The notes below the pieces were generated by a model. The model was not told the origin of the DNA. It ran no database searches and worked only from the letters and a program-made list of their open reading frames with translations. A DNA stretch of 64,000 bases from sequence record PV577658; one strand, 5' to 3'. Of this stretch, positions 8,617 to 64,000 are shown piece by piece. The DNA comes from Escherichia phage vB_EcoS_MM-2. The position numbers and the translations under genes were made by a program. Each line of letters starts with the position of its first letter. Positions within the stretch are counted from its first letter, which is position 1.

Positions 8617-8660
8617 TTGCTTAATCCTATAATTCTTGATATAATATTCTCATAGTTTGA
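8617..8660 (+). promoter_or_regulatory. early promoter (TTGCTT-17-TATAAT)
   Basis: ttgctt..tataat followed by attctcatagtttgaaag, a variant of the downstream box. Confidence 0.5.
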
Positions 8661-48743: not shown

Positions 48744-50060
48744 TTATTTACCACGGGAAATAGAGTAAATTCCATAGCGCAGAGCATCACAGAGGTGAGA
48801 GTTAGCATCATGACGTGGTTTTTCACGTGATAATTTTTCTTCACCTTCTTGGAAATCCCACTTGTAATTCTGCAATGCGTGAATTAATGAGGAACATGAA
48901 GCATCCACAATAATCTTGCCTTGTTGGAATAGTGCTTGTAAACATGCTAATCCATCTAGGACAGATTTTTTAGCTGGAGCCGATGCAATTTCATGTTCAT
49001 AAGCTAAGTCCTGACGGAACTGAGCTGCGGCAGAGTCAACAAAAACACGATCAACTTTATAACGATCTATACAGTGCTGAATGTAAGCCGCATGCTGAGC
49101 TGTGGTTTTCTCCGCCTGCTGGTACTCTTCTAATACATAGTAGGTATCTGTATCATAGTGGTACTTAATAGTAAGAACTGCTGTAGGATCACGATAACCA
49201 ACGTCAATACCAAGCAACGTTTCGAATGCTTCATCATCTTTAAAGAAGTGACGCATACCTTTAAGGTCTTTAACATGGTCTATAGCATTAAAGGTATCAA
49301 AGATCTGACCTTCGAATACAGAGAAGTCAGCCTCATATTCCTGACGAAAGTAGTTTTTACTAACTGTACGACGTGCTTCTTCGATATCATTCAGATCAGC
49401 ACGTGGGTTATCACGATACGTACCATGAATAGATACCCAGTTAGGTAATGTATCATCAAATCCATAGGCATAAAACTCTTTAAACCAGTTACCACCACGA
49501 GGAGTAGAGATAAATAGAGCCTTAGAGTTTGGTTTATCTAGGGTAGGACGCAACTGAACTCTAAAGGCATCACCACCCACATCGGAAATTGCCGCCTCAT
49601 CAAAGATGATAAAGTCATATGAACGCCCAACTGCGGAGTCAGCCTGCGCCGCAGAAGCTAGTTTAAACAGAGAACCATTAGCTAACTCAATCTCTTTATC
49701 TTTAGCATTCTCACGTTCGGTTTGTAGGCCATATTTTTTAATAAGACCACGAATCTGAGACCATCCGATGTTGGCCAGTGAGTAGTTAGGAGCAACTACT
49801 AGCACCTTTACGTTAGGCTCCAGCAACTTTAGAAACCCAAGTGTGTATGCGATGAAGGATTTACCTACACGGCGTGATACACACGCCGTTACAAAACGAT
49901 GTCTAGGGTCTTCTAGCGCATTGATAATCGCTATTTGAGGACCATTAGGTGTAATACCCTCTTGAGCTAGTATTCCTGAAACAGGTAGACGAAAGAAACG
50001 TTTGTCTATTCCGAAATCAATAACATCAACTGTGTTAACGTAGGGTCTTGATACTTCCAT
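48744..50060 (-). CDS. terL: terminase large subunit
   Basis: Walker A-like VSRRVGKS, Walker B FIIFDEAA, C-terminal nuclease acidic residues. Confidence 0.8.
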   Translation of the reverse strand: MEVSRPYVNTVDVIDFGIDKRFFRLPVSGILAQEGITPNGPQIAIINALEDPRHRFVTACVSRRVGKSFIAYTLGFLKLLEPNVKVLVVAPNYSLANIGWSQIRGLIKKYGLQTERENAKDKEIELANGSLFKLASAAQADSAVGRSYDFIIFDEAAISDVGGDAFRVQLRPTLDKPNSKALFISTPRGGNWFKEFYAYGFDDTLPNWVSIHGTYRDNPRADLNDIEEARRTVSKNYFRQEYEADFSVFEGQIFDTFNAIDHVKDLKGMRHFFKDDEAFETLLGIDVGYRDPTAVLTIKYHYDTDTYYVLEEYQQAEKTTAQHAAYIQHCIDRYKVDRVFVDSAAAQFRQDLAYEHEIASAPAKKSVLDGLACLQALFQQGKIIVDASCSSLIHALQNYKWDFQEGEEKLSREKPRHDANSHLCDALRYGIYSISRGK

Positions 50061-50542
50061 TACTTCTTACCTCCAGTAGCTAGGGAAGTAATTAAGTCCA
50101 TGTAGTTTTGATCCCCAGCTCCAGCAATAATATTATTCTGGATATTGGTCTGATTAGCAGGAGCACGGACGGCAGCTTTAGCTTTTTCTAGCTCCACCAT
50201 CATTTTCATCTCTTCCATCTTCATTTTATGTGCCTTCCAGAGAATATCCATAATATCCTGGTCAGAACCCATGCCAGTTTCTTCCAGTTCCTCCAGCTTA
50301 CGTTTAATAACTTCATCTAGAACACCGAACAAACGATCTCTGTTACGGAATCCACTCTCCATAAAAATATCGTTCAAGTAATTCTTAACTTCACTACGAT
50401 TCATAATATCTCGGAAAGCAATTTCAGACATTCCAAGACTACGTGCGGCAGAAGGCACATCGCTACCGCACTGTAAATAAGCTTCAATCACATCCATCCC
50501 TTCAGGGGACATAAGATCTGGTACTAATATATCATTTGCCAT
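50060..50542 (-). CDS. putative terminase small subunit
   Basis: 160 aa immediately upstream of terL with overlapping stop/start; HTH-like N-terminus. Confidence 0.45.
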
Positions 50543-50552
50543 ATTTCCTCCT

Positions 50553-52310
50553 TTAGGTAAGGCGTTGAACTGTTACTCTTAATCTAGGTAGAAAAACTGC
50601 ACTACCTAAACTTACGTGCATAACTACCCCTAACTCTACATTTCCATTCCCCAGATTTTTAGCAGTATATATAAAACTATTTCTACTTAGGGCATTGTTA
50701 GGTGTGTATCTAAAAGCAGATGTAGTATGAAAAGGTACTAAATACCCTACTGGTAATGTTAAAATCTGGTGGAATATCGCGTCACCATTACTATAACTAT
50801 ATGCTCTTCTTCCTTGCACCTGAAACACACCGTTATTCCATGTATTAGCAGGGACACCTGCACAGTTAAGATTACCTGATATAACTTCAGTGGTAAGAAT
50901 TACTGTAGCATTGCCACCCGGTATACCTAGCCCAATAGTTGATAAACCAACGTATCTATCTCCTGTTCCTGGGTAGCTGGGGGTAATATCATCTCCCATA
51001 TAAGAACTACCTACATTTCCACCAAAAAGTCGTAATGGAACTGCTGATGGTCCCCAAACAACCCCGTGTTCATTACCGATAGTATTATCATTAGAGTTTA
51101 CGTACCATTGCTTACCAGCTCCGAATTTGTAAATACTAATTTGAGACTTAGCCCCTCCATAGTCCACAGGAGACCATAAACTCCCGTTACTAGAACCTAC
51201 AAGTTCACACCTTGCGGTGGTATCCCCAAAGGCCCCAGTATATGCTGCATTATTTCCAATATATTCCATATCTGGTCTATAACCTAAGTTACCGAAAGCG
51301 TTCTGGTTAATAAACTTGTATCCAGTATTGGGAAGACTAACCCCTTTAATTATGAAATTAGAAGGAGATATAAGAATATCTGAACCAGTAAAAGGATTAC
51401 CAGAGATACTCATACCACCATTTGAGTATCTTAAATTCAAAACGTACCAAATAACTTTAGTAGGAGTTATGTTATACCAATCTTGTAGTATTGTAGAATC
51501 ACCAGATTGATTAGCTAAATTAGTTGTAGAACCCCTACAAACAAACCTATTACCCCCATCATGATACATAGTATTTACATTACCAGGAAGACCTTGTCTT
51601 ACCCCACCATACCCACGTATGTTAGAGTTACAAACATAGAACCAATCGTGCCCTCTGTGTGCTGATCCTAAAGGAGACATCCATCCTGGGTCCCAGTAAT
51701 TTTGGTTATTCCCATCTATAGGTACTGTACTACTATTAGTAGGGAATCCTAACTGTGCAAAAGCTTCTGCAACAGTAACCCCTACTGGAGCTCCTGCACC
51801 TGGCCTAACTATACCATGATACGTACTATGTAGGGTAGTTCCACCAGTACCATTCCTAGAAATAGATTCTTCATGCCCTATAGATGGATTATAGTTATAT
51901 GTACCAGATGCCAGGCTATTACCAAATGCAAATCCACTAGTCTGGGAAACACTAGCAAAAGATCTAAAAGGATCTGCTTGAGTGGCAACTATAGTTTGAC
52001 CCACCTTACTCTGAGTACCATTAAGAAAAGCTCTGTGAGTACCATTAATCTCAATAGCAGTTAATATAACTCTACCAGGATCGTTAGATTTAATATTTAT
52101 TATGTCAGAGGGCATCTGACATACAAAAAACCCATTTCCGGCATTTCCTAACCCAGCCTCATAAGTACCATCAACTAGGACAAATGGCATATCACTATGA
52201 AAAATACTATTGGCATTTGGACTATAGTGACGATTAATGTCACCACCAGATTCAGTATTTAAAGATAGTACGGTCTTACCATCGCTATATTTTCCAGCGA
52301 AAAAACCCAT
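50553..52310 (-). CDS. receptor-binding tail protein (T5 pb5-like)
   Basis: 585 aa, Gly/Asn/Ser-rich beta protein, transcribed divergently from the lipoprotein gene as oad/llp are in T5. Confidence 0.6.
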
Positions 52311-52335
52311 ATAATCTCCTATTATAAAAATGTAT

Positions 52336-52364
52336 TTGCTTTCATCCCTCTATTTTGCTATAAT
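52336..52364 (+). promoter_or_regulatory. early promoter (TTGCTT-17-TGcTATAAT) for the lipoprotein gene
   Basis: ttgctttcatccctctattttgctataat then agattcataaatt box. Confidence 0.6.
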
Positions 52365-52395
52365 AGATTCATAAATTAGAAATGGAGAGATAAAT

Positions 52396-52662
52396 ATGAA
52401 AAAGTTTGTGATTGCACTAGTTGCCGCAGTTATGTTATCTGGTTGTGCACCTGCTCCCAAACCATTTTGTACTGGATTTGTAAAATCTTTTGGTGGTGCG
52501 GGAGAAGAACATTACGGCCTCAAGGTTCAAAAAGTTCGTATTAAGGGAGATCGCTTCCCAGTAGTACAGCTCCGTACTAAGTTTGGATGGTGGGATCTCA
52601 GTCAGTTTGACCTTAAATATGGTGATTGTAAATTTAAACTAGAGCAATCTAACTACATGTAA
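52396..52662 (+). CDS. llp: Llp-type outer-membrane lipoprotein (receptor-blocking superinfection exclusion)
   Basis: Signal peptide with lipobox (MKKFVIALVAAVMLSGC); 88 aa precursor; position next to the receptor-binding gene. Confidence 0.75.
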   Translation: MKKFVIALVAAVMLSGCAPAPKPFCTGFVKSFGGAGEEHYGLKVQKVRIKGDRFPVVQLRTKFGWWDLSQFDLKYGDCKFKLEQSNYM

Positions 52663-52839
52663 TTAGTATAAAGCAAAAAGACATCTAAGTAAACTAAATT
52701 TTTTATTTTTTGGATGGTATATTGGCAGAAACCACTATGTAAGAAAATGAGAAGTCCTTCTAGGAAGTCACAAGCATGGTTGGTTATATACAAATTATAA
52801 AATATTTTAAAATACCATACTCATAGGAGCAAGAAAGAT

Positions 52840-52967
52840 ATGTCAAATAAAAGAAAGAACAGACGCGGAGAAGTGTACGAAGCGTGGATTAATATTTACG
52901 GATTTGGTTTTGTATTATTCCTAATCTTCGTAGGTTTTTGGTTAGCAGCTATGGCGGGGTGGATTTA
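52840..52967 (+). CDS. small membrane peptide (~42 aa), first of a coupled array
   Basis: Hand-translated: MSNKRKNRRGEVYEAWINIYGFGFVLFLIFVGFWLAAMAGWI; AGGAG RBS; stop overlaps next start (TAATG). Confidence 0.4.
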
Positions 52968-53123
52968 ATGGAATGGGTAATTATTGGCATATTCGTCTTA
53001 TTGATACTTCTCTTTGTAGGCTTACGTGTAATAGATACCTCTGTAACCCAAACAGAAATTAAATTAATGCAGTTGAGTAATAGATTATCTAGAATTGAAA
53101 CTTTATTAGAGGAGCGTAAATAA
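52938..53123 (+). CDS. small single-pass membrane protein (likely start at MEW, ~52968)
   Basis: MEWVIIGIFVLLILLFVGL hydrophobic helix then RIETLLEERK. Confidence 0.45.
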   Translation: MVSSYGGVDLMEWVIIGIFVLLILLFVGLRVIDTSVTQTEIKLMQLSNRLSRIETLLEERK

Positions 53124-53230
53124 TGGAATGGGTAATTATTGCACTACTGGGGATTGTGATTATTGGGCAATGTATTTTAGATAATTATTTAGCTAGAATT
53201 GAAACCTTACTATCGGAGAAACGTAAATGA
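53123..53230 (+). CDS. small single-pass membrane peptide (~35 aa), paralog of the previous gene
   Basis: Hand-translated: MEWVIIALLGIVIIGQCILDNYLARIETLLSEKRK. Confidence 0.4.
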   Translation: MEWVIIALLGIVIIGQCILDNYLARIETLLSEKRK

Positions 53231-53659: not shown

Positions 53660-53770
53660 TTTGACTTTTGCCAAATTTCATAAGATTACACATGGAGGTG
53701 TGTCCAGTGGGTCGGGGGAGAATACTTAGTCTGCTAACCGCCACCCCCCGTTACTATTATCATGGTAATT

Positions 53771-53807
53771 GTTTCACCCTGCAATTAAAATGGTTGCAGG
53801 GTGAAAC
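53771..53807. terminator. bidirectional terminator hairpin (perfect 14-bp stem)
   Basis: gtttcaccctgcaa-ttaaaatgg-ttgcagggtgaaac between the plus-strand peptide array and the minus-strand dmp-like gene. Confidence 0.7.
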
Positions 53808-53824
53808 AATTTCAACTTTAATTA

Positions 53825-54601
53825 TTACGCAACTTTTAATTTCTCGATATATTGTTGCGGGCTGCAACTATATTCTGCGCGTTCTTCCTCGGTCATACCT
53901 TCCCAACATAATTTCAAACGATCAGCTAGGAATTGATAATCATTATCATCATCGAGGGATTCATCAATAAAGGTTTCACCTATCAATGCCACGCCGATTG
54001 ATAGAATATCGTTAACGGCTTGCGCGTCCAGCGTTTTAAATCCGTATGATGCCGCCGCTGATAGTACACCCTTATGATCATCAATCATTGTAAAATCAGC
54101 GTTCGGATATAACTGTTTAAATAATTCAAAATAATAAGATTTATAAACTGCGTCTTTGCTGTGGTATATCTCGCTAACTTTATCAGCCTCAAAATATTTA
54201 TGCAGTGTATCGCGAGAAAACACGCGGATATTACTATCACCACGACCGCGCAAGCCTTGTTTGCGCAAATAATAATAGTCCGACTTGCTCATTAGTCGAG
54301 CGGTACAAATAATGTTTAAAGTATTTGCGTCATTCATGCACTGGCGCATATATGTAACAAGGGGCAATAAAGTATCTTGCATTATTAAATCATGTTTGCA
54401 GGCTTCATTTTTATACTTATTTAAATCTAAATTGCCCTCGCTATCAAAGCAAGGCGCTACACGATGGAAAGAATTAATGATAGTGCCGTCCAGATCCCAA
54501 ATCATGACGCGGGAAATATGCGGGAAATTACGGGTAATATTCATTTTAACTTGATTCATTTTGTTACGTTCTCCATTAAAGGGATTTAGTTTATCCAGCA
54601 T
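53825..54601 (-). CDS. dmp: HAD-family 5'-deoxyribonucleotidase-like protein (T5 dmp-like)
   Basis: HAD motif I MIWDLDGTI; first gene of a minus-strand operon with A1/A2-like genes; likely internal start giving ~244 aa. Confidence 0.55.
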   Translation of the reverse strand: MLDKLNPFNGERNKMNQVKMNITRNFPHISRVMIWDLDGTIINSFHRVAPCFDSEGNLDLNKYKNEACKHDLIMQDTLLPLVTYMRQCMNDANTLNIICTARLMSKSDYYYLRKQGLRGRGDSNIRVFSRDTLHKYFEADKVSEIYHSKDAVYKSYYFELFKQLYPNADFTMIDDHKGVLSAAASYGFKTLDAQAVNDILSIGVALIGETFIDESLDDDNDYQFLADRLKLCWEGMTEEERAEYSCSPQQYIEKLKVA

Positions 54602-54639
54602 TACCCGCTATTTATAAGCGGGTAATAATAAATCAACTA

Positions 54640-55032
54640 TTAAAGACCATAAGCCAACGCATCAGCGATAAAACTAACATCCTCACCGGATACGCTAGAA
54701 CGAATCCCCGCGCAGGTGTATACCTTTGCGCTCGCTAGCTGATCATCAAGGCAAGCGGGGCAAGGCGCGACAACTGCAAAGGCTAGACCAGATTTTACCG
54801 CGTCAATAATGATTGTTTCTTGTTTCATCGTGTCAACATAAACGCCTTTTGCTTTAATATGGCTGGTTAGTTTGCCTTGCGTATAGGCAAAGGTAGTAAC
54901 CTGTAAAGCGTCATTGAAATCTAATAATTCATCAATAACGTGCCCCGCCTCGACGTGGTAACGTTCACCATTAGAATAAACCAGAACAATGGAAGACTGA
55001 GCGCGATCGAATGGAATATTTTGCTTTTTCAT
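54640..55032 (-). CDS. small Cys/His-containing protein, possibly deaminase-like zinc-binding
   Basis: HVEAGH ... PCPAC motifs, but spacing (~70 aa) is longer than in canonical cytidine deaminases. Confidence 0.3.
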   Translation of the reverse strand: MKKQNIPFDRAQSSIVLVYSNGERYHVEAGHVIDELLDFNDALQVTTFAYTQGKLTSHIKAKGVYVDTMKQETIIIDAVKSGLAFAVVAPCPACLDDQLASAKVYTCAGIRSSVSGEDVSFIADALAYGL

Positions 55033-55071
55033 ACTTATAAAACTCCAATTAGTTTAATATAGGGATTTAAT

Positions 55072-55362
55072 TTATTTGATAATAATCTGCATCTGGTACG
55101 GCGTTAATTCACCGTTTACGGGTAAATTATTATCGCTTAGCCACTCATAAAAAGCGCCATCATCATCAAAAGGAACAACATCATTATCACGATAATCGAT
55201 GGAAATAATGCCATCCGTATTAGTTTTGGCGGCTAGGATAGGCCCAAAGCTGTAAACTTTATCGGATTCCATTTCATCCGGTGAGATGAATGCTTTTTCG
55301 TCCAATGTTTTGGGTAATGTAACTTTCATTTTTTGACTCCTGTAATAGCGGCTATATTTCAA
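55072..55362 (-). CDS. hypothetical pre-early protein (likely start at Met ~55329)
   Basis: Track ORF with conserved upstream translation-initiation region. Confidence 0.4.
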   Translation of the reverse strand: MKYSRYYRSQKMKVTLPKTLDEKAFISPDEMESDKVYSFGPILAAKTNTDGIISIDYRDNDVVPFDDDGAFYEWLSDNNLPVNGELTPYQMQIIIK

Positions 55363-55382
55363 GCCGCTAGGGGATAATTTAA

Positions 55383-57047
55383 TTACGCGAAAAATTTACC
55401 GTTTTTAAAGTCAATCAAAGTGCGCTGACCGTTTGCATAGGTAATTAAATGCGTTTGCGTCCAGCTTGACGCGCCAACGTTGTAACCCATATCCAGACTA
55501 CCAGCTACGCCAGCGGTATAAACGCCACCGTAAATGCTAGCGGTATGGGTGTGTCCCGTGTTTAGCTTGCCCAATTTCTTAAACTGTTTAGGATTGCCAC
55601 GACTGCCGTTAATGCCGTTGTGACCGTGTACGCCGCACTCAATGCCTGCAATCTTGAAAGATTGATCAGTGGTTAGGAAAATGGCGTTAAACTCACAACC
55701 TGCAACCTTGCGCAGCGCATAATCTAGCACGTTAAAAGTATCATCATGATCACTGATCGCCGCGTAAATTGCAGCATTCAGGCGGTGATATAGTTCGGCG
55801 TTGGCTGGATCGTCTTTGATGTTAGCATTACGATCATCTAACCAGCGGGATAGCGCCAAATCGTGATTAGATTCAACAATGATTGTTTGAGAGAAATCAC
55901 GTTCCATTGATTCCAGCACGCGCCCCGTATCGATAAGATCATCCAGAACTTTATCACGTCCAGCGGCATACTGTTTTGCTAGGAATACACCGGATGCACG
56001 GTTATGATGATTGCGCGATGTAAAATCATGCACGTCATGGATAAACTGATATTTTGGTTTAAGAATATCAAGCAAGCTATTTTCGCCAGCCCATGACGCA
56101 ACGGCACAATCATCATCTAATTTTTCCGCATGAATATCGCCATACTGCAAGCCTAAAACATGCCCCGATGTTTCATAGCATCCGGCAGGAGTAGCGCAAA
56201 CATTCAGATCATAAAACACCCCGCTTTCGTCCATTGTTTCAAGCTGGCGAACAAAAAATTCCCCGTCCTCGTCGAACTCAACAATCAGCGCGCCGAAGTT
56301 ATGCAGAGCTTCCGCTTTTTGTCCTGCTTTCTGCTGAATATAGTTTTTAAGCGTTGCCGTTCCGGTTGAATACATACGGCGCACTACTTCACCTTTTAAA
56401 GCTGGCACGCTTTCAGCGGTGATTTTAGCGTGACCAATTGCCAGCCCCTCAATATTGAGCGCCGTTGCAGTTTCTGCAAATCCTGAAAGCGGGTAATCTG
56501 CGGTTGGCAAAACATTAATTTCAGCCATGAAAGCAAAACGGCGGTTATTTAAAAACACGTTTTTGCTGCAAATATATTTATCAAATGCGGGATCGTATTT
56601 GATACCGTCTGCACCTTCTTCATTCTGGAAGCCATTTTTATTATAAATATACTTAGAAACAAGCAAATCAGCACCGATATATTCAGCGAATTTTTCCAGA
56701 CTTGCTAAAAAGTTTTTATGCGGGAAAGTATTATTTTGAATCGACGTAATAATAAAGCGTTTACCCTGTTTTACTTCCCATTGCTCAACCGTACTAGAAA
56801 CAATTCCCGCCGCTTCTGGGCGCTCATCGTTTTTAATGGCTTTTGCTACTTTTGCCGCTTTCGGTTTAGCTGGTTTATTTGCTTCCAGCCAGTCGCAGAT
56901 AGCGGTTGAATGCTTCGTTGTATCGTAGACCGCTTTTGATATATCGTCGCAGACTTCCAGTTTAGTAGCGCGCAGACGTTTACCATAGAAATTAAAGTCA
57001 GCGGCCATTTTCAGGATAACGGTTTGTTTTTCTGCGGAAATAATCAT
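55383..57047 (-). CDS. A1: A1-like pre-early protein with calcineurin-like metallophosphoesterase motifs
   Basis: 554 aa; GDIHAE and GHTHTAS metallophosphatase-type motifs; size and context match T5 A1 as I recall it. Confidence 0.6.
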   Translation of the reverse strand: MIISAEKQTVILKMAADFNFYGKRLRATKLEVCDDISKAVYDTTKHSTAICDWLEANKPAKPKAAKVAKAIKNDERPEAAGIVSSTVEQWEVKQGKRFIITSIQNNTFPHKNFLASLEKFAEYIGADLLVSKYIYNKNGFQNEEGADGIKYDPAFDKYICSKNVFLNNRRFAFMAEINVLPTADYPLSGFAETATALNIEGLAIGHAKITAESVPALKGEVVRRMYSTGTATLKNYIQQKAGQKAEALHNFGALIVEFDEDGEFFVRQLETMDESGVFYDLNVCATPAGCYETSGHVLGLQYGDIHAEKLDDDCAVASWAGENSLLDILKPKYQFIHDVHDFTSRNHHNRASGVFLAKQYAAGRDKVLDDLIDTGRVLESMERDFSQTIIVESNHDLALSRWLDDRNANIKDDPANAELYHRLNAAIYAAISDHDDTFNVLDYALRKVAGCEFNAIFLTTDQSFKIAGIECGVHGHNGINGSRGNPKQFKKLGKLNTGHTHTASIYGGVYTAGVAGSLDMGYNVGASSWTQTHLITYANGQRTLIDFKNGKFFA

Positions 57048-57137
57048 AGTAATAAAACTCCATTAAAGGGATTAGATTAATAACGGCAATATTGCCAAAT
57101 ATAACGCCTCAAATAATAGGCGTTATAATTTGCAACA

Positions 57138-57335
57138 TTAATTTAAAGGCACTAGGCTAGAACTAACACCACAAGCAACGGCAGCGATAAAACAAAGCAA
57201 GCCCAAACGTTTTGCTAATTTAGATTTACGTTTAAAATAATATGAATCTAAATCATTTTGAAAATAAGCGAACAATAACGAGGGCGCCATAATAAACAAG
57301 CCTAGAATTAATGATTCAGTAGGATAAAAGATCAT
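57138..57335 (-). CDS. small membrane protein (two predicted TM helices)
   Basis: MIFYPTESLILGLFIMAPSLLFAYF ... LGLLCFIAAVACGVSS; AGGAG RBS. Confidence 0.4.
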   Translation of the reverse strand: MIFYPTESLILGLFIMAPSLLFAYFQNDLDSYYFKRKSKLAKRLGLLCFIAAVACGVSSSLVPLN

Positions 57336-57429
57336 TTTAAAAACTCCTGATTTAAGGGAAGAAAATAACTATCGCTAAACAGTTATATTATTGCCCCCTC
57401 ACTAAAAAAAGGGGGGCAAGGTATAACTA

Positions 57430-57837
57430 TTATTCGCCTGCGGCTTGTTTTACTTCCTCGGCAACGCCTAACAATTGCGCTACTGCGTCCAGCGTTTCAA
57501 GTTTTGCACTTTCAAGGCTTGCCAGATCATCGGCATCTTTGATAATGCCGGAATCGATAGCGTGTTTTGCAATAACGCGTACATAATGAGCTTTGCGGAT
57601 TGAACTACCGCCGCCAACTTTGCGGGGCTTACCGCTTTTTTGATATGCTTTTGCGCTGGTCAATTTTGACCGAACGGATACGGGAGAAGCCGCGCCTACT
57701 GCTTTTGCAATCTCTTTCAGGCCGTCGCTATTTGCGAAATCTAAACCGTTTTCATTAATTAACTGTTGATACATGGAAACAGCTTTCTGAGTGTTTTCTT
57801 CATTCCATGCGAATTTTGCGGTTTTAGCGTTAGTCAT
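57430..57837 (-). CDS. A2: A2-like pre-early DNA-binding protein
   Basis: 135 aa (~15 kDa), basic central region; position upstream of the A1-like gene. Confidence 0.5.
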   Translation of the reverse strand: MTNAKTAKFAWNEENTQKAVSMYQQLINENGLDFANSDGLKEIAKAVGAASPVSVRSKLTSAKAYQKSGKPRKVGGGSSIRKAHYVRVIAKHAIDSGIIKDADDLASLESAKLETLDAVAQLLGVAEEVKQAAGE

Positions 57838-57933
57838 GATGTAACTCCTATTAGTTTAATTTAAGGGATTAGATTAACTTAATGTTAATCGTTATATCCC
57901 CCTGAAATAAGGGGATATAAAGTTAACACTAAT

Positions 57934-58185
57934 TTACAATACAGCTTCCCATTTTTCGTTGCGTTGAACAACCTTTACAACATCGCCGGATTTAACGCGA
58001 ACGCTAAAAACGGGCTTGCCGTTGTTACTACGTTCATTTTCAGCGTATACCGCGTCGATTGTATCGAACGGCATAAGCGCCGCACCTTTAATACGTTCGG
58101 CCTTTCCGGTTAATTCATCCGTTTTAGTAACGAAAGGAATGAAGACGAATTGACCAACTTTCGGCGCGGTAATAACGTTTTGCAT
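57934..58185 (-). CDS. hypothetical pre-early protein
   Basis: 83 aa; first gene of the minus-strand block. Confidence 0.4.
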   Translation of the reverse strand: MQNVITAPKVGQFVFIPFVTKTDELTGKAERIKGAALMPFDTIDAVYAENERSNNGKPVFSVRVKSGDVVKVVQRNEKWEAVL

Positions 58186-58415
58186 AATATAAACTCCTAG
58201 TTATTTGGGGATTGTTCCGCATTACCTGCTAGAAAGTAACAGCAGGTAATAAGTAACAATCCGCTCGCCAATATAATCAATTTTAAAGAACTCCACGTAG
58301 GCCGCTATATCCCGTTAGGGGGCGGGATGCATTATGGTAAGCACCGACCGTCAAATTTTATCAAGTTATCGCTCTTATCGAACTGGGTACATCTTAAAAC
58401 CTATCGGCTAGGTTG

Positions 58416-58619
58416 TCAAACAATTTTTTGCAATTTTTTATGATTTTCTTTTAGGTCAATCATAATATTTCGCCAGATCATTTCCAGACCTTGCTGGCGA
58501 CCTTTCTTGTACTGCGTGAATCTATATCTTACTGATCTTTGAGCTACTGTCAACAAATTTTTTGTTTTGCTATCTAGTGCCTTAATAGGCTTGCCAGTGA
58601 TCAAAAGCGTTTGTTTCAT
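58416..58619 (-). CDS. hypothetical small basic protein
   Basis: 67 aa, Lys/Arg-rich; weak RBS. Confidence 0.3.
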   Translation of the reverse strand: MKQTLLITGKPIKALDSKTKNLLTVAQRSVRYRFTQYKKGRQQGLEMIWRNIMIDLKENHKKLQKIV

Positions 58620-59066
58620 ATCGTCGATTCCTTATAATGAATAAGTTTACCGCCGATAGGCTTTAAGATGTACCCAATTTTTAAAGAGCGTGGCGGTAAA
58701 CTTCCCGCCGTGTAGTTCGTCATTGCCGCCCTACGAGATAAATAATAGGGGATTCCCGAAAATGGCGCAACCTTATTTTTGTAAAGAAATGTAAAGGTAA
58801 AACTCACCGGACACCGTGCGGCGACGGCCTAAAATTAAAAGAAACGGGCGCGCGAATACCACAAAATAAAGCAAATAGGCAAGTAATTTTTTCATTTATA
58901 TTTGCTTTGCCCTACTTGACAAAATCTAAAAAGCTCGTGGTAACGATAAACGGCTTATCCCCTTATGATGGGATGGCTAAAAACTTTATTGCGTTCTGGA
59001 GCGTTTTAGGCGCATTCTAGCCTTGTTGATAACTTATCCCCAAAAGCAAAAATGAAATTTTCCTAG

Positions 59067-59099
59067 TTATCCACTTGACTTTTATTTTCCAGTGGATAA
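59067..59099. promoter_or_regulatory. inverted pair of DnaA-box-like 9-mers around a TTGACT hexamer
   Basis: agTTATCCACTtgacttttattttccAGTGGATAAct; 11-bp perfect inverted repeat, each arm one mismatch from TTATCCACA. Confidence 0.5.
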
Positions 59100-59273
59100 C
59101 TACTTATTTTATGAAATAAATTAATTGACTTTTATTTGTTAGTATGCATCGGAAAGATAGCAGACTAATAATTGCTAGAATGATAATCATGCTGGTGGAT
59201 TGTAACGACCTGAATTATTAGCAGACTATTAATCACGGAAAAATCTCATTAGCCAACTAACTATTTCATGATA

Positions 59274-59300
59274 TATAATATACATATAAATTAATGAGAA
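59274..59300 (+). promoter_or_regulatory. promoter-like element of the early family
   Basis: tataat followed by atacatataaattaatgagaaa box; no convincing -35; no gene for ~430 bp downstream. Confidence 0.35.
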
Positions 59301-59351
59301 ATAATAACTATAAGAAATCATCTAGCTAAGTGAGAACCACTATCATTTAAG

Positions 59352-59372
59352 TTATACACAAAGTTATCCACA
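59352..59372 (+). promoter_or_regulatory. two adjacent DnaA-box-like sites
   Basis: gTTATACACAaagTTATCCACAgc: one perfect consensus 9-mer and one with a single mismatch. Confidence 0.5.
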
Positions 59373-59443
59373 GCACTTTTTGACTTGACACGATAGGCGG
59401 CGATATAAGGACTTTTACACAGACTTATCTACAGGTTATTCCA

Positions 59444-59459
59444 CTGTATAAATATACAG
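59444..59459. promoter_or_regulatory. LexA (SOS) box-like palindrome
   Basis: CTGTATAAATATACAG fits CTGT-N8-ACAG with AT-rich spacer. Confidence 0.45.
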
Positions 59460-59726
59460 GGTAAAAAGGTAGTGTTAACAACTGCAATCAATTTTAAGCG
59501 GCTTAAATCGCATTCTAACGAGCTAAACGCTGCGGGGTAATATTAAAGTAAAGCCTTAATGCGTCGCCCTGGTGGCTTCGCCGTGGTTTGCTCTTTATTG
59601 CACCGCTGCGCGGTTAGCATAAAAATAGGCGCTAGGCAAGGAAAATAAAAAGGTAAAATAATATTTGCCTATGCTAGAAATTTACCTTTATCATTCACTC
59701 ACCGATTAACGAGGGAGGCCGAACAA

Positions 59727-60506
59727 ATGAGGCTTTATAAACCTGATAATGCCACCGTTTTAAAAGGTGCATTGCGCAACCTGCTGGATGGTAGCAAGTC
59801 AACCAGCATTAAACATTTTATTAACAAGATTGAAACTATTCATCAAAACTTTTTTGATGATTATGACGCTTATGATATGGATAGTTTTCTACCCTTATAT
59901 AGACAAGGGGCAACGCTAGTTTTATATAATCGGGATTGCCATATCTTTACAGGCAGGGGAGCGGGGCCGGATACCGATTTTATTGTTGCGCAGGGTAATA
60001 ATATTGTTGCGTATCATAGCAATTCAGGCCGTCAATCATTTAATATAAATAGTTTTGAGCTTATTGGACTTGATCTGATAAATGGACTTTCTAGCATTGA
60101 GGGATTTTTAGATGTTATCTGGAAGTATTTACCCGCTGGATGGCATAAGCCGGATAACGACGGATCTCAATATACCGGTATAATGGCTTTTGATGGCGAC
60201 GGTAATTTTTTGTTACCACGGGAGCTATACCCATATATTTATGATGGGGATATAGAAAGCGCTGGTTTTTCTTTCTGGAAAGATGAAGATCAGATTATTG
60301 ACAGCGTAGAAAACCATGCTGTAAATTCTAACACTCAAAGCGTTAACACTCAAACTACTGAAAACAAAGGAAAAAACACTATGACCAAGATTGCTAACAT
60401 CGTTGCCGCTAATAAATCCGCCGTTGTAAATGCTGCAAAACTGGAAGCGGGTAAAATTGCACTGACTCAAATCACGAAAGTAGCGGCTAAAAAGCACCGT
60501 TCATGA
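59727..60506 (+). CDS. hypothetical protein, 259 aa
   Basis: Track ORF with RBS GAGGGAGG; no recognisable motif. Confidence 0.45.
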   Translation: MRLYKPDNATVLKGALRNLLDGSKSTSIKHFINKIETIHQNFFDDYDAYDMDSFLPLYRQGATLVLYNRDCHIFTGRGAGPDTDFIVAQGNNIVAYHSNSGRQSFNINSFELIGLDLINGLSSIEGFLDVIWKYLPAGWHKPDNDGSQYTGIMAFDGDGNFLLPRELYPYIYDGDIESAGFSFWKDEDQIIDSVENHAVNSNTQSVNTQTTENKGKNTMTKIANIVAANKSAVVNAAKLEAGKIALTQITKVAAKKHRS

Positions 60507-60736
60507 TTAAAGGCTATATTGATACGCCGATTGGTCGAGTAGTGATTGCTAACCTGCTAAGTGTAGCGGTTGACCAGTACGCACCGACTAACCAGAAAGC
60601 GAAAGCGGTAGCAGGGGCGGCTATGGAAGCGGCAATGCTGGAAATGGTGCAAAGTTTTAACATCGCTGAAATGATTGATGAAATGGTGAAAGGTATTGAT
60701 ATTTCTACTTTTACCACTAGCACCGAAATCGAGTAA
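60503..60736 (+). CDS. hypothetical protein
   Basis: Track ORF, ATGA overlap with upstream gene. Confidence 0.4.
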   Translation: MIKGYIDTPIGRVVIANLLSVAVDQYAPTNQKAKAVAGAAMEAAMLEMVQSFNIAEMIDEMVKGIDISTFTTSTEIE

Positions 60737-60801
60737 TAATATTTAGTGGGGATTATTTCCCCACTTTACTACTCCCTTGTTAATTAATAGGAGGCTAACT
60801 A

Positions 60802-61296
60802 ATGGCTGAGGAAAAATACGGCTTCTCGCTAGGAGAAGTGAGCACGGCTAAACATGATATGATCATTTTAGTCGATTGTCATACTGGCTATTGCGGAGAA
60901 GGGAACACCGAAGAATACTTTGTTCCTGCTGGTACGGATCTGGACGCTTTCGCTCATGAAATGGCTATTGATAATGCTTCTCGTTTTGGTAGCGATGGCT
61001 ATGAAGACGAAGAAACTGGCGAATGGTATGAAAATGAAAACGTATATGCAAGCCTTTATCATTATCAGCTAAGTAAATCCGGCACATATGTAAACGGCGG
61101 CGATCCTATTAATTCCGTCATGAAATTAATTATTAAATATGGTGGCGTCGAGATAATTGATAACAAAGCGGTAATATACGCAAACCGATTAAAACAGCTT
61201 GTTTATATTCCTGATAGTACCCGATGGGATGAATACGCTGTTTTGCATGACGAATTGAAACGATGTTTCAATATTGAATCCCTGCAAGTAGTCTAA
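60802..61296 (+). CDS. hypothetical acidic protein
   Basis: Track ORF with RBS AGGAGG. Confidence 0.45.
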   Translation: MAEEKYGFSLGEVSTAKHDMIILVDCHTGYCGEGNTEEYFVPAGTDLDAFAHEMAIDNASRFGSDGYEDEETGEWYENENVYASLYHYQLSKSGTYVNGGDPINSVMKLIIKYGGVEIIDNKAVIYANRLKQLVYIPDSTRWDEYAVLHDELKRCFNIESLQVV

Positions 61297-61323
61297 TGTA
61301 AAGTTTTGTAAAGGTCGCCTTTT

Positions 61324-61632
61324 ATGGTGGCCTTTTTTGTTATAATGCTTTTACACCAAAACGGTGGATTGAAAATTTTCCCAAAAATTTGGAGGCTTAA
61401 AATGGTTGCTTATTCTTCTGCTAGTCATCTGTTTACCGCGCAAGGCTGGGTATCTAATCGTGCTGTCATCTATGAAATGGTGCAGGAGTTCGGCATTGCT
61501 AAAACTTATAATACCATTCAGGAACTATATAACGCCGATAAAATCGATCAGCAAACGGCTGGCTTTTTACTGGATACCCTGAAAGCTGAACATTGCACTA
61601 AAAAACAAGCCGCTAAAATTGTTTTAATGTAA
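61324..61632 (+). CDS. hypothetical protein (likely start at Met ~61402)
   Basis: GGAGG RBS precedes the internal Met; followed by hairpin cggggcg..cgccccg. Confidence 0.4.
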   Translation: MVAFFVIMLLHQNGGLKIFPKIWRLKMVAYSSASHLFTAQGWVSNRAVIYEMVQEFGIAKTYNTIQELYNADKIDQQTAGFLLDTLKAEHCTKKQAAKIVLM

Positions 61633-61681
61633 TTAATAACGGGGCGTTACTTTCGCCCCGATAACTAGGAGGCTATCACAA

Positions 61682-61832
61682 ATGGTTATTTTTCGATCTA
61701 TTTTAGCGGGTATCTTGGGCGCTATTTTATCGTTATTTGCGATAGCTTTCGGCGTTCACGCTGTTATTATTGGCGCTGGCATTGCTGCGTTTTCTTATCT
61801 GCTGGGCTGCATGACTAGTAAAGGAGAATAAA
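61682..61832 (+). CDS. small membrane peptide (~50 aa)
   Basis: Hand-translated: MVIFRSILAGILGAILSLFAIAFGVHAVIIGAGIAAFSYLLGCMTSKGE; AGGAGG RBS. Confidence 0.35.
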
Positions 61833-61833
61833 A

Positions 61834-62046
61834 ATGATCCGCAACGTTTCCCTTGCACGTTCGAAAGGCTTTAAGCTGGTGGATGTTAACACGTTCGAGT
61901 GGGAAGATTGTAAAATCGAATATGTAGCACGTAACAAAAATGCCTTTCGTGTTACCGAGAAAAAATTTGATAAGCGCGGCAACGTGATAGCTGAAACAGT
62001 TAAACATTTTGCCACCTTTTACGCTGCTTTCCGTGGGGTATTATGA
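61834..62046 (+). CDS. hypothetical protein
   Basis: Track ORF. Confidence 0.4.
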   Translation: MIRNVSLARSKGFKLVDVNTFEWEDCKIEYVARNKNAFRVTEKKFDKRGNVIAETVKHFATFYAAFRGVL

Positions 62047-62146
62047 TTCAGCAAATTAAAACGGCTTTTCGTTTTTGGGGCGTCCTGCCTTCAATTGGTT
62101 TTATTCTGATAATTATTAGTCAGCTAATGATCATCGGCGGAACTAT

Positions 62147-62506
62147 TTGGGAGCTATGCAAATGATAATTTATGAAGGCAATCGCTTTGTTGCTAATTGC
62201 CGTCCGGCATTATTAGCAAACTATTTAAACCAGCTTTCCCCAGCTTATAAGGGCGTTATTAATATTTATGAGGGAAAGGCGCATTATAAAATTAATGCGG
62301 TCGTTGCCCGTGAACTAGCATTTCAATTTTTGACCTTTGCATCTTGTGACGTTCAGGTTATGGGTGAGGCATTAATCGCGGAAAATGAAGAGGATTTTAT
62401 TAATATTTTCCGTAAGGTATGCACTGAGCGCTTGATAATGAAAGGCGCGTATATTCAATCAACTGCGGAAAGTATTGAAACAGCATTTCGAAAGGTGGCG
62501 CAATGA
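62147..62506 (+). CDS. hypothetical protein
   Basis: Track ORF. Confidence 0.4.
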   Translation: MGAMQMIIYEGNRFVANCRPALLANYLNQLSPAYKGVINIYEGKAHYKINAVVARELAFQFLTFASCDVQVMGEALIAENEEDFINIFRKVCTERLIMKGAYIQSTAESIETAFRKVAQ

Positions 62507-62606
62507 GATTATATATTTTCGTTGGTAATGTTAAGGCAGCTAATGATTCCGCTGGTGGCGACAACGTTCGCCACCATTGGCAAAAATATATTTACTAGGA
62601 GTTATT

Positions 62607-62711
62607 ATGTCTGGTTTAATGTTTACCTTATTAGTAGTTTATAGCATAATTACGGCAGGAATAGTAACTTATGTTACTAGTAAAATTTGGCCGGGAATAT
62701 ATGGTAATTTT
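62607..62711 (+). CDS. small membrane peptide (~34 aa)
   Basis: Hand-translated: MSGLMFTLLVVYSIITAGIVTYVTSKIWPGIYGNF; RBS AGGAG. Confidence 0.3.
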
Positions 62712-62729
62712 TAATAACGGAGCGTTATT

Positions 62730-62933
62730 ATGAGCAATAAAATTATTGTAACCAAAATCAGTACAATGGTTGATGTTTTTTACGTGCCAGATACGCCGGA
62801 GAATCGGCAAGCGGTCGAGCGGGGCGAATATGATAAAGTGATTTATGATCACGATGGTTATTATCAGTATTTGGTGGATTCCTACGGGGAGGAGGAGAAG
62901 ATCACGCATCGACTACCGGAGGAGGGTTTATGA
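62730..62933 (+). CDS. hypothetical acidic protein
   Basis: Track ORF with RBS ACGGAG. Confidence 0.4.
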   Translation: MSNKIIVTKISTMVDVFYVPDTPENRQAVERGEYDKVIYDHDGYYQYLVDSYGEEEKITHRLPEEGL

Positions 62934-63083
62934 AACGATGGTTTAATCACTGGTACAAGCGGTTTTTAGTACGCCGTCGCAAGTCTAGGCATCAAGATGA
63001 GTGGCGGGAGTGGGCAAAGCGTAACGGTTGCCCGCTACTATAATAATCACGGGGCGCAACTATCGGGAAGTGCCCCCAATTCT

Positions 63084-63106
63084 CAAATGAGAATCATTCT
63101 CATTTG
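63084..63106. repeat. perfect 11-bp-arm palindrome caaatgagaat-c-attctcatttg
   Basis: Core aatgagaatcattctcatt recurs at ~63474 (imperfect) and ~63581 (perfect). Confidence 0.7.
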
Positions 63107-63299
63107 ACCGCGCCCGCGATGGTTAGCCTGCTAATGATTAGGGTGTTACGTGTCGCCTTGTGTGATCGTTAGCGAGCTAACTAATTTTCAAGCCTCCTCC
63201 AATTTTGCCCTTGTTTTAGTATCTCCACCAAAATTAAACGCGTTAGAATGCGATCTAGGACGTTTTAACGCTATATTAGAATTATTCACTGCGTAGGAA

Positions 63300-63319
63300 T
63301 ACTGTATATTTATACAGTA
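63300..63319. promoter_or_regulatory. LexA (SOS) box-like palindrome, 19/20 match to consensus
   Basis: TACTGTATATTTATACAGTA versus TACTGTATATATATACAGTA. Confidence 0.5.
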
Positions 63320-63399
63320 GGATAAGCTGTGATAAGTCTGTTAATAACACCCCAAAATGGCTAGGATTCTGTCAAGTCAAATCGTGCTGTTAATAAGTC

Positions 63400-63408
63400 T
63401 GTGGATAA
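63400..63408 (-). promoter_or_regulatory. DnaA-box-like site (perfect 9-mer on minus strand)
   Basis: tgtggataa is the reverse complement of TTATCCACA; flanked by repeated gataagtctgt. Confidence 0.45.
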
Positions 63409-63426
63409 CTTAAATAATAGTGTTTC

Positions 63427-63600
63427 TCACTTCCGTTCTTAAATACGAATCACTATCATTTGCGTTCCACTTTCTAAATGAGAATCATTCTGCTTTTTAA
63501 AGGAGAATCGTTTCACTTCCTGAATAATTCTCACTTCCATTCTTAAATGCGAATTATTATCATTCTCATTCCGCTTTTTAAATGAGAATCATTCTCATTA
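63427..63600. repeat. two ~70-100 bp imperfect direct repeats carrying the aatgagaatcattctcatt palindrome
   Basis: ctcacttccgttcttaaatacgaatcactatcatt... and ctcacttccattcttaaatgcgaattattatcatt..., each ending in the palindrome core. Confidence 0.65.
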
Positions 63601-63639
63601 TCATTCGCATTCAGGCGAGCAGGGCAATTGCCCTGCGCT

Positions 63640-63760
63640 TTTGTGCAAATCCGACATTGCTCCACGGGTGTTACGTGCGGGCGTGTATGTGCGAATCCCT
63701 GTGGGGTATGTGCAAATCCGACACGGTTTTTCTAGGATTAAGATGTGCGAATCCGACAAG
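63640..63760. repeat. four iteron-like copies of ATGTGC(A/G)AATCC(GACA)
   Basis: tgtgcaaatccgaca, tgtgcgaatccctgt, tgtgcaaatccgaca, tgtgcgaatccgaca at ~20-35 bp spacing. Confidence 0.65.
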
Positions 63761-63770
63761 ATTTTTGTGA

Positions 63771-63960
63771 CTTCGATTGGAGGGTGTGTGATTGTGTGAG
63801 TTTGGGGAGAAGTTGAGAGAGCGAGAAAAATTTGAGGGAACTGCGGGAGGGGCGCATGTTTGGTGCGGAGCACCTGATTTGCGGGGATTTTGGGGAAGAG
63901 TTGAGAAGATTTGGGTTAATTTGAGATTAGTGCAGAAAAAGTAAAATTTTATTAGCTAAA
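63771..63960 (+). other. polypurine, C-depleted tract with repeated (t)ttgag(a/g) motifs
   Basis: Almost no C on the plus strand; gttgagagag, tttgaggg, gttgagaag, tttgagattag; no credible ORF. Confidence 0.5.
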
Positions 63961-64000
63961 TGGAGCAAAATAGCTTGACAAGTGAAAATTCTTGTGGCTC

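Follow-up and report, generated by a model that had tools for sequence, protein, structure and literature searches.

The locus lies between positions 50,553 and 52,662 of the window, a 64,000-nucleotide stretch of DNA from Escherichia phage vB_EcoS_MM-2 (sequence record PV577658), and comprises two genes that point away from each other. The minus-strand gene (50553–52310) encodes a 585-residue receptor-binding protein (RBP) of the hrs/oad type and pb5 family, identified from the open reading frame list, the profile phrog_4815 and the T5 pb5 structures. Facing it on the plus strand (52396–52662) is llp, which encodes an 88-residue prelipoprotein and was identified from the open reading frame list, LPAM_1 and phrog_1119. 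The two start codons are separated by 85 bp and point outward, making transcription divergent, and direct reading of this intergenic control region (52311–52395, assigned to neither strand) located the elements described below. The coordinates and lengths in the open reading frame list are those that an earlier note on this DNA, made from the letters alone, had given for a 585-residue minus-strand gene facing an 88-residue lipoprotein gene. The RBP matches phrog_4815 (‘receptor binding tail protein’) along its entire length (E = 6.7e-275, residues 1–585 on profile positions 1–650) and the lipoprotein matches phrog_1119 (E = 1.8e-26), so neither is a chance reading frame. Directly downstream of the RBP gene, also on the minus strand (48744–50542), are the genes for the large (48744–50060) and small (50060–50542) terminase subunits, recognised by Pfam Terminase_6N/6C and phrog_3802. 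The RBP gene thus occupies the position by which a pb5/Hrs gene is known, immediately upstream of terS/terL with a small-lipoprotein gene diverging from it.

A megablast search of GenBank phages with positions 50000–53200 returned 438 T5-like records. Phage vB_EcoS_MM-1 (PV577657; Demerecviridae, Tequintavirus) matched the full length at 100% identity and phage EC148 matched at 99.9%. In PV577657 the pair is labelled ‘receptor binding tail protein’ and ‘Cor superinfection exclusion protein’, and has terS/terL as one flank, the opposite flank consisting of four to five tiny membrane-protein genes and the right terminal repeat; our literature search found no paper on vB_EcoS_MM-1. The layout of the pair and its neighbours is common to MM-1, DT57C, BF23, Bas32 and T5. 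The module is the known BF23-type hrs/llp host-recognition module of T5-like phages, already annotated publicly. The earlier note had likened the arrangement to T5 oad/llp, which the pb5 homology, the near-identity of Llp to known proteins and the canonical position upstream of terS/terL bear out; more precisely, though, the precedent is the hrs–llp module of BF23 (Mondigler, Ayoub & Heller 2006; OR083247), which has the same gene order, divergence and position upstream of terS/terL, rather than T5 oad (pb5)–llp (PDB IDs: 8B14/8A8C, 8A60 and 7QJF), which has the same architecture and position.

No family model in Pfam or NCBIfam matched the RBP. Against structures, it aligned with the T5 pb5 chains 8b14_B (E = 2.2e-50) and 8a8c_B (both E ∼2e-50), with good blocks at residues 1–141 and 270–531, confirming that the two proteins are homologous. 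By direct pairwise alignment the RBP is 98% identical to that of Bas32, 73% to DT57C Hrs, 69% to BF23 Hrs and 35% to T5 pb5. A tblastn search found homologues in 540 phage records, which fall into discrete identity classes: 101 records at 95% or above, including the BASEL phage Bas32 (IrisVonRoten); 293 records at 60–80%, including SPC35 at 72%; Yersinia phage phiR2-01 at 56%; and T5, FFH1 and Klebsiella T5-like phages at only ∼28–30%. Bas32 carries essentially the same pair as MM-2, its Llp also being 98% identical, while DT57C Hrs represents a third subtype and BF23 Hrs (595 residues, against 585 here) belongs to another subtype of the same BtuB-type family.

At 585 residues against 640, the RBP is 55 residues shorter than T5 pb5, in line with the remark in the earlier note. 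Alignment attributes the deficit to several deletions, including gaps at T5 residues ∼570–590, which in pb5 form L4, the loop that contacts and inserts into FhuA (PMC9586334). Identity to T5 peaks at residues 1–40 (55%) and at residues 281–360 and 401–440 (45–50%), and is lowest across residues 81–280 (∼22–28%). Against BF23 the lowest stretch is residues 161–280, at ∼27–55%. This pattern would fit a protein with a conserved part that serves as scaffold and fibre attachment, and a second part that is receptor-specific. In T5, the central straight fibre carries pb5 at its tip, and binding of pb5 to the receptor triggers DNA ejection (PMC9586334); the MM-2 homologue probably occupies the same tip and would likewise trigger ejection on binding its receptor.

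The RBPs of T5-like phages form three clusters (BtuB, FepA and FhuA), and cluster membership predicts the receptor (BASEL study, PMC8594841). The MM-2 protein groups with the BtuB type, being 69–73% identical to the proteins of BF23, DT57C and SPC35 and 56% identical to that of phiR2-01, against ∼28–35% for the RBPs of T5, other FhuA-type phages and Klebsiella phages; separation from the FepA type, that of H8, follows the clustering of PMC8594841. The assignment of the RBP to the BtuB-type Hrs proteins (Bas32 subtype), and not to the FhuA-binding T5 cluster, is thus supported at the level of sequence, and the suggestion in the earlier note that the receptor may differ from that of T5 is upheld to the same degree. 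For DT57C, BtuB dependence was established by sequencing resistant clones, in which btuB-inactivating mutations were found (PMC4728585); citations in the literature attribute BtuB dependence to BF23, SPC35, EPS7 and phiR2-01 as well. The receptors in the BASEL figure are tagged ‘determined or proposed’ (PMC8594841), and the accessible part of the BASEL text (PMC8594841) holds no explicit receptor-knockout statement for Bas32. BtuB use by Bas32-type RBPs is accordingly a prediction from clustering, made for a protein only 69–73% identical to experimentally characterised Hrs.

The 88-residue lipoprotein begins MKKFVIALVAAVMLSGC and carries a lipobox, L-S-G-C, with the acylated cysteine at position 17. 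Residues 1–16 form the signal peptide (MKKFVIALVAAVMLSG, followed by Cys17), and the 72-residue mature domain contains two further cysteines, Cys25 and Cys78. Llp matches Pfam LPAM_1 with 23.9 bits against a cut-off of 20, and within Pfam and NCBIfam only this lipobox motif was recognised. Alanine occupies the +2 position after Cys17, which by the established +2 rule makes the protein of the outer-membrane sorting type. Llp is identical to BF23 Llp at 87 of 88 residues, and to DT57C Llp and Bas32 Llp at 86 of 88 each, and is 26% identical to T5 Llp. By tblastn, llp homologues are present in 403 phage records, 181 of which hold a BF23-type llp at 95% identity or more. A published BF23 llp primer, GGAGAGATAAATATGAAAAAGTTTGTAATTGCACTAGTTGC (PMC4728585), matches positions 52384–52424 with one mismatch.

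The blocking function is documented for the BF23 and DT57C proteins, from which Llp differs by only one or two residues. Under leaky expression of DT57C llp, the plating efficiency of DT57C, DT571/2 and BF23 fell by a factor of more than 100, with T5 unaffected (PMC4728585; Golomidova et al. 2016), and BF23 llp reduced plating more than 10^6-fold (Mondigler et al. (2006), as cited in PMC4728585). Going by these nearly identical proteins, MM-2 Llp is predicted to block BtuB-dependent T5-like phages but not T5. The identities to BF23 Llp (99%) and DT57C Llp (98%) give substance to the proposal in the earlier note that the lipoprotein is a receptor blocker, and alignment of both proteins to the known pb5 and Llp variants, which it had called for, pairs a BtuB-type RBP with a BF23-type Llp.

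Direct reading of the 85-bp spacer reveals a promoter for llp (52336–52364, plus strand), comprising a −35 hexamer TTGCTT (52336–52341), a 17-nucleotide spacer and an extended −10 element TGcTATAAT (52356–52364). A Shine-Dalgarno sequence, GGAGAG (52384–52389), follows 6 nucleotides upstream of the llp ATG. On the minus strand, the only clear element on the RBP-gene side of the spacer is the ribosome-binding site AGGAG (52316–52320), 5 nucleotides upstream of the ATG; in the T5 and BF23 records, promoters are annotated in the spacer on both strands, with an early promoter for llp. The llp promoter is an exact match to TTGCTT-N14-TGN-TATAAT, a motif that occurs, with at most one mismatch, at five sites in the window, all on the plus strand, against 0.08 expected. 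When the spacers of five phages (MM-2, BF23, DT57C, Bas32 and T5) were aligned, the −35 and −10 hexamers and the spacing between them were invariant; the extended −10 TG is present in MM-2, BF23, DT57C and Bas32, and T5 instead has CTGTATAAT. The spacer as a whole is nearly identical in BF23, DT57C and Bas32, with the core elements kept in T5. The earlier note had credited the lipoprotein gene with its own promoter, and the directly read TTGCTT-17-TATAAT with TGn, its hexamers conserved in T5, agrees.

The 85-bp spacer gave no promoter call in an automated sigma-70 scan, which is explained by the −35 hexamer matching at only three of six positions. We considered the silence of the scan as evidence against a promoter and rejected it, given the perfect extended −10 element and the strong over-representation of the motif. 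In sequence, the llp promoter is very similar to PN25, a classic early promoter of T5. Going by T5, llp would be expressed early in infection. No terminator was found after llp, either by automated scan or by RNA folding of the 200 nucleotides downstream (z = −0.05).

Nucleotide identity along the region, measured in 200-nucleotide bins, is distinctly mosaic. The terminase genes terL and terS are 87.5–97.5% identical to those of BF23, DT57C and T5, and the small genes downstream of llp are ∼85–90% identical to the same three phages. Between them, the RBP gene falls to 55–81% against BF23 and DT57C and to 35–55% against T5, while llp is 95–97% identical to BF23 and DT57C and 33–47% identical to T5. 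Relative to BF23 and DT57C, the drop is thus limited to the RBP gene, which argues that this gene has been exchanged independently of llp. The comparison with BF23 alone, in which the RBP gene (55–81%) contrasts with llp and its flanks (90–97%), indicates a recombinational exchange of the RBP gene by itself. The same mosaic of a conserved llp beside a divergent hrs has been described for DT57C relative to BF23 (PMC4728585). In the databases, 181 records carry the BF23-type llp at 95% identity or more and 101 carry the RBP subtype, a difference in spread that is consistent with independent exchange. A plausible reason for the mosaic would be that Llp contacts a conserved periplasmic face of BtuB and the RBPs contact its variable surface loops.

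The BF23 and T5 Llp proteins were called non-homologous in older papers (e.g. PMC4728585), and we find several results that point toward the contrary view. Both MM-2 Llp and T5 Llp match phrog_1119 (‘Cor superinfection exclusion protein’), T5 Llp with E = 1.1e-19, and the mature parts alone still match (Llp E = 4.4e-15 at positions 20–78; T5 Llp E = 2.2e-10 at positions 21–77), with the caveat that both proteins were probably among the sequences used to build this PHROG. A pairwise BLASTP alignment of the two gave E = 1e-4 and a common KGD-F-V motif. All 12 homologues compared keep Cys25 and Cys78 (mature positions 9 and 62), and Cys78 aligns with the C-terminal cysteine of T5 Llp, whose Cys11 and Cys58 form a disulphide (PMC9586334). 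The Cys25/Cys78 pair parallels this bond, making a disulphide in the MM-2 protein a putative feature. An AlphaFold2 model of Llp, calculated from a 12-sequence alignment, has a five-stranded small barrel and a C-terminal helix (mean pLDDT 82, core above 90), and the small β-barrel of the two proteins is probably similar. T5 Llp was not reached from the MM-2 sequence by phmmer against PDB sequences, nor by the 12-sequence Llp family profile against the PDB. The mature MM-2 protein is 11 residues longer than that of T5.

Taken as a whole, the region is very probably a host-recognition module of Tequintavirus in its BF23-type, BtuB-specific form, working by docking of the RBP and blocking by Llp. 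The gene structure, homology, subtype, promoter motif and lipoprotein signals that enter this scheme were computed in the present analysis. On the RBP side, the central straight tail fibre would bear the protein at its tip as a monomeric Hrs, the pb5 homologue. The conserved segments of the protein, which are N-terminal, central and C-terminal, would preserve the pb5 scaffold and anchor it to the fibre, while the divergent segments with shortened loops would dock on the extracellular side of BtuB, the outer-membrane vitamin B12 transporter, leading to irreversible adsorption and DNA ejection; for the BtuB specificity, as for the blocking phenotype, the source is published work on near-identical proteins. 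On the lipoprotein side, llp would be transcribed soon after infection from its strong sigma-70 promoter of the early type, a timing that follows the T5 analogy. The product is predicted to be exported and cut by signal peptidase II, to receive its lipid at Cys17 and, having Ala at +2, to reach the inner leaflet of the outer membrane.

From there, Llp would bind BtuB, probably from the periplasm at the plug, and lock it in a state that the RBP cannot bind, with the surface loops closing allosterically. Periplasmic binding and allosteric loop closure are both carried over from the FhuA–Llp complex of T5, the one system for which this form of blocking has been solved (PMC9586334); searches of PDB sequences returned no structure of a BtuB–Llp complex. 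Blocked BtuB would exclude superinfecting BtuB-dependent phages, and would also spare progeny virions from receptor-bearing debris after lysis. Architecture, position and promoter hexamers are common to this module and that of T5, where the RBP is homologous and the lipoprotein belongs to the same PHROG and has a comparable cysteine pair. The T5 module differs in its receptor, FhuA, in a pb5 that is ∼30–35% identical and 55 residues longer, with L4 insertions that appear as gaps in the MM-2 RBP, and in an Llp of only 26% identity.

The identity of the lipoprotein as a receptor blocker has to be weighed against its being some other outer-membrane lipoprotein, such as a lysis o-spanin. Lysis o-spanins are also small, with a lipobox and an outer-membrane sorting signal, and the 88-residue product has all three features. 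The protein is, however, 99% identical to a reported blocker and matches the Cor/Llp PHROG, no spanin family matched it, and its gene adjoins the RBP gene, not a lysis cassette, with no adjacent or embedded i-spanin partner. We reject the o-spanin reading, to which we attach next to no credence. As to the receptor itself, a Bas32-type RBP could have drifted to a non-BtuB receptor or come to need an additional one, leaving the BF23-type Llp mismatched or useful against competitors only. Such drift would suit an RBP only 69–73% identical to tested Hrs proteins and sharing 27–55% with BF23 across residues 161–280, a recombination breakpoint between the RBP gene and llp of the kind also noted for DT57C (PMC4728585), and an RBP subtype found in only 101 records beside an llp conserved at 95% or more in 181. 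DT57C, however, is equally divergent from BF23, yet uses BtuB and is blocked by Llp (PMC4728585), and phiR2-01, at only 56% identity, is likewise cited as using BtuB. The BASEL tree moreover places the BtuB-type RBPs in one cluster apart from the FhuA and FepA clusters (PMC8594841), and FhuA-type proteins are only ∼30% identical to the MM-2 RBP. We therefore judge drift away from BtuB to be very improbable and retain BtuB as the predicted receptor.

What Llp is chiefly for is a separate question, concerning biological role alone and compatible with the blocking mechanism set out above. Llp may serve mainly to spare new virions from BtuB on the debris of lysed cells (‘lytic conversion’) instead of excluding superinfection, by the same mechanism; exclusion alone might be expected to bring little to a phage that is strictly lytic and whose latent period is short. 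The sequence does not separate the two roles, and the early-type promoter fits early blocking, which would serve both. We regard a mainly debris-directed role as possible and the less favoured of the two.

Llp of the BF23 type is near-invariant beside at least three RBP subtypes that are 69–73% identical to one another (MM-2/Bas32, DT57C and BF23/SPC35), and a more specific proposal can be drawn from this. Llp would act on the conserved periplasmic plug of BtuB and the RBPs on its variable extracellular loops, the Bas32 type docking through another set of loops than BF23 Hrs or having an altered host-species range; separately, the Llp proteins of BF23 type and of T5 would be genuine homologues in structure. 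We offer this combination tentatively, as a conjecture less likely than not. If true, the homology with T5 Llp would mean that the ‘jam the plug from the periplasm’ mechanism known for FhuA applies to BtuB too. The conserved Llp with its exchangeable RBP subtypes is also a convenient natural series for studying the closure, by a periplasmic lipoprotein, of TonB-dependent transporters beyond FhuA.

For T5 and BF23 such a module is textbook knowledge, and the value of the present locus is mainly predictive. The phage is predicted to need BtuB as its terminal receptor, and resistant hosts are predicted to carry btuB mutations, which is relevant to the design of phage cocktails. Once infected, cells should resist further T5-like phages that depend on BtuB; vitamin B12 uptake or the action of E colicins may be blocked as well.

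A more distant likeness is to the Cor proteins of T1, phi80, N15 and HK022-like phages, small lipoproteins of the outer membrane whose genes adjoin those for the RBP or tail tip and which put a TonB-dependent transporter out of action. Similarity between Cor and T5 Llp has been noted (PMC9586334), and phrog_1119 is common to Cor and the MM-2 Llp; Cor differs in targeting FhuA and in belonging to other phage lineages. The only match to Llp outside the T5-like phages in the tblastn search was weak, at 34% identity (E = 1e-3).

The receptor-blocking lipoprotein Llp (88 aa, gene at 52396–52662 on the plus strand) is shared more widely among phage records than the subtype of the receptor-binding protein (RBP) encoded beside it, with at least 95% conservation of Llp in 181 records and of the Bas32-type RBP subtype in only 101. 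One Llp is common to at least three RBP subtypes, which are 69–73% identical to each other, and comparison across phage records places a recombination boundary within or close to the 85-bp spacer (52311–52395) separating the two genes. Copies of the RBP/llp module with ∼94% identity are also present in OR846838 (Listeria phage LM 4-11-1) and in other entries labelled ‘Listeria’ or ‘Campylobacter’. These module-bearing records are short and unannotated, and the module itself is T5-like and of the Enterobacteria-phage type; the hosts named for these deposits most likely reflect mislabelling or contamination.

The promoter-like motif TTGCTT-N14-TGN-TATAAT was matched five times in the window with up to one mismatch (0.08 expected by chance), exclusively on the plus strand, at 8617, 9833, 11280, 16210 and 52336, the last being the llp promoter. 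These copies probably constitute the window's set of strong T5 early-type promoters. At the opposite end of llp, a 46-aa ORF with a TTG start (52653–52793, minus strand) overlaps the llp stop codon in antisense; the record of phage MM-1 lists it as a hypothetical protein, probably through over-calling.

Downstream of llp, an additional 51-aa ORF (52968–53123, plus strand; MEWVIIGIF...RIETLLEERK) encodes a single-transmembrane protein and is flanked by the T5.159 and T5.160 homologues. Its region is an insertion relative to the T5-like phages BF23, DT57C and T5, because identity to them falls to only ∼22% in the bin 52944–53143. The ORF also seems to be paralogous to, and in tandem with, the next one, a 35-aa ORF at 53123–53230 (plus strand; MEWVIIALL...RIETLLSEKRK), with BLASTP aligning the two at 37% identity (E = 6e-7) across a 14-residue gap. 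According to the annotation of MM-1, this T5-like genome has its right terminal repeat starting at ∼53702 (about 53702–64000), ∼1 kb downstream of llp.
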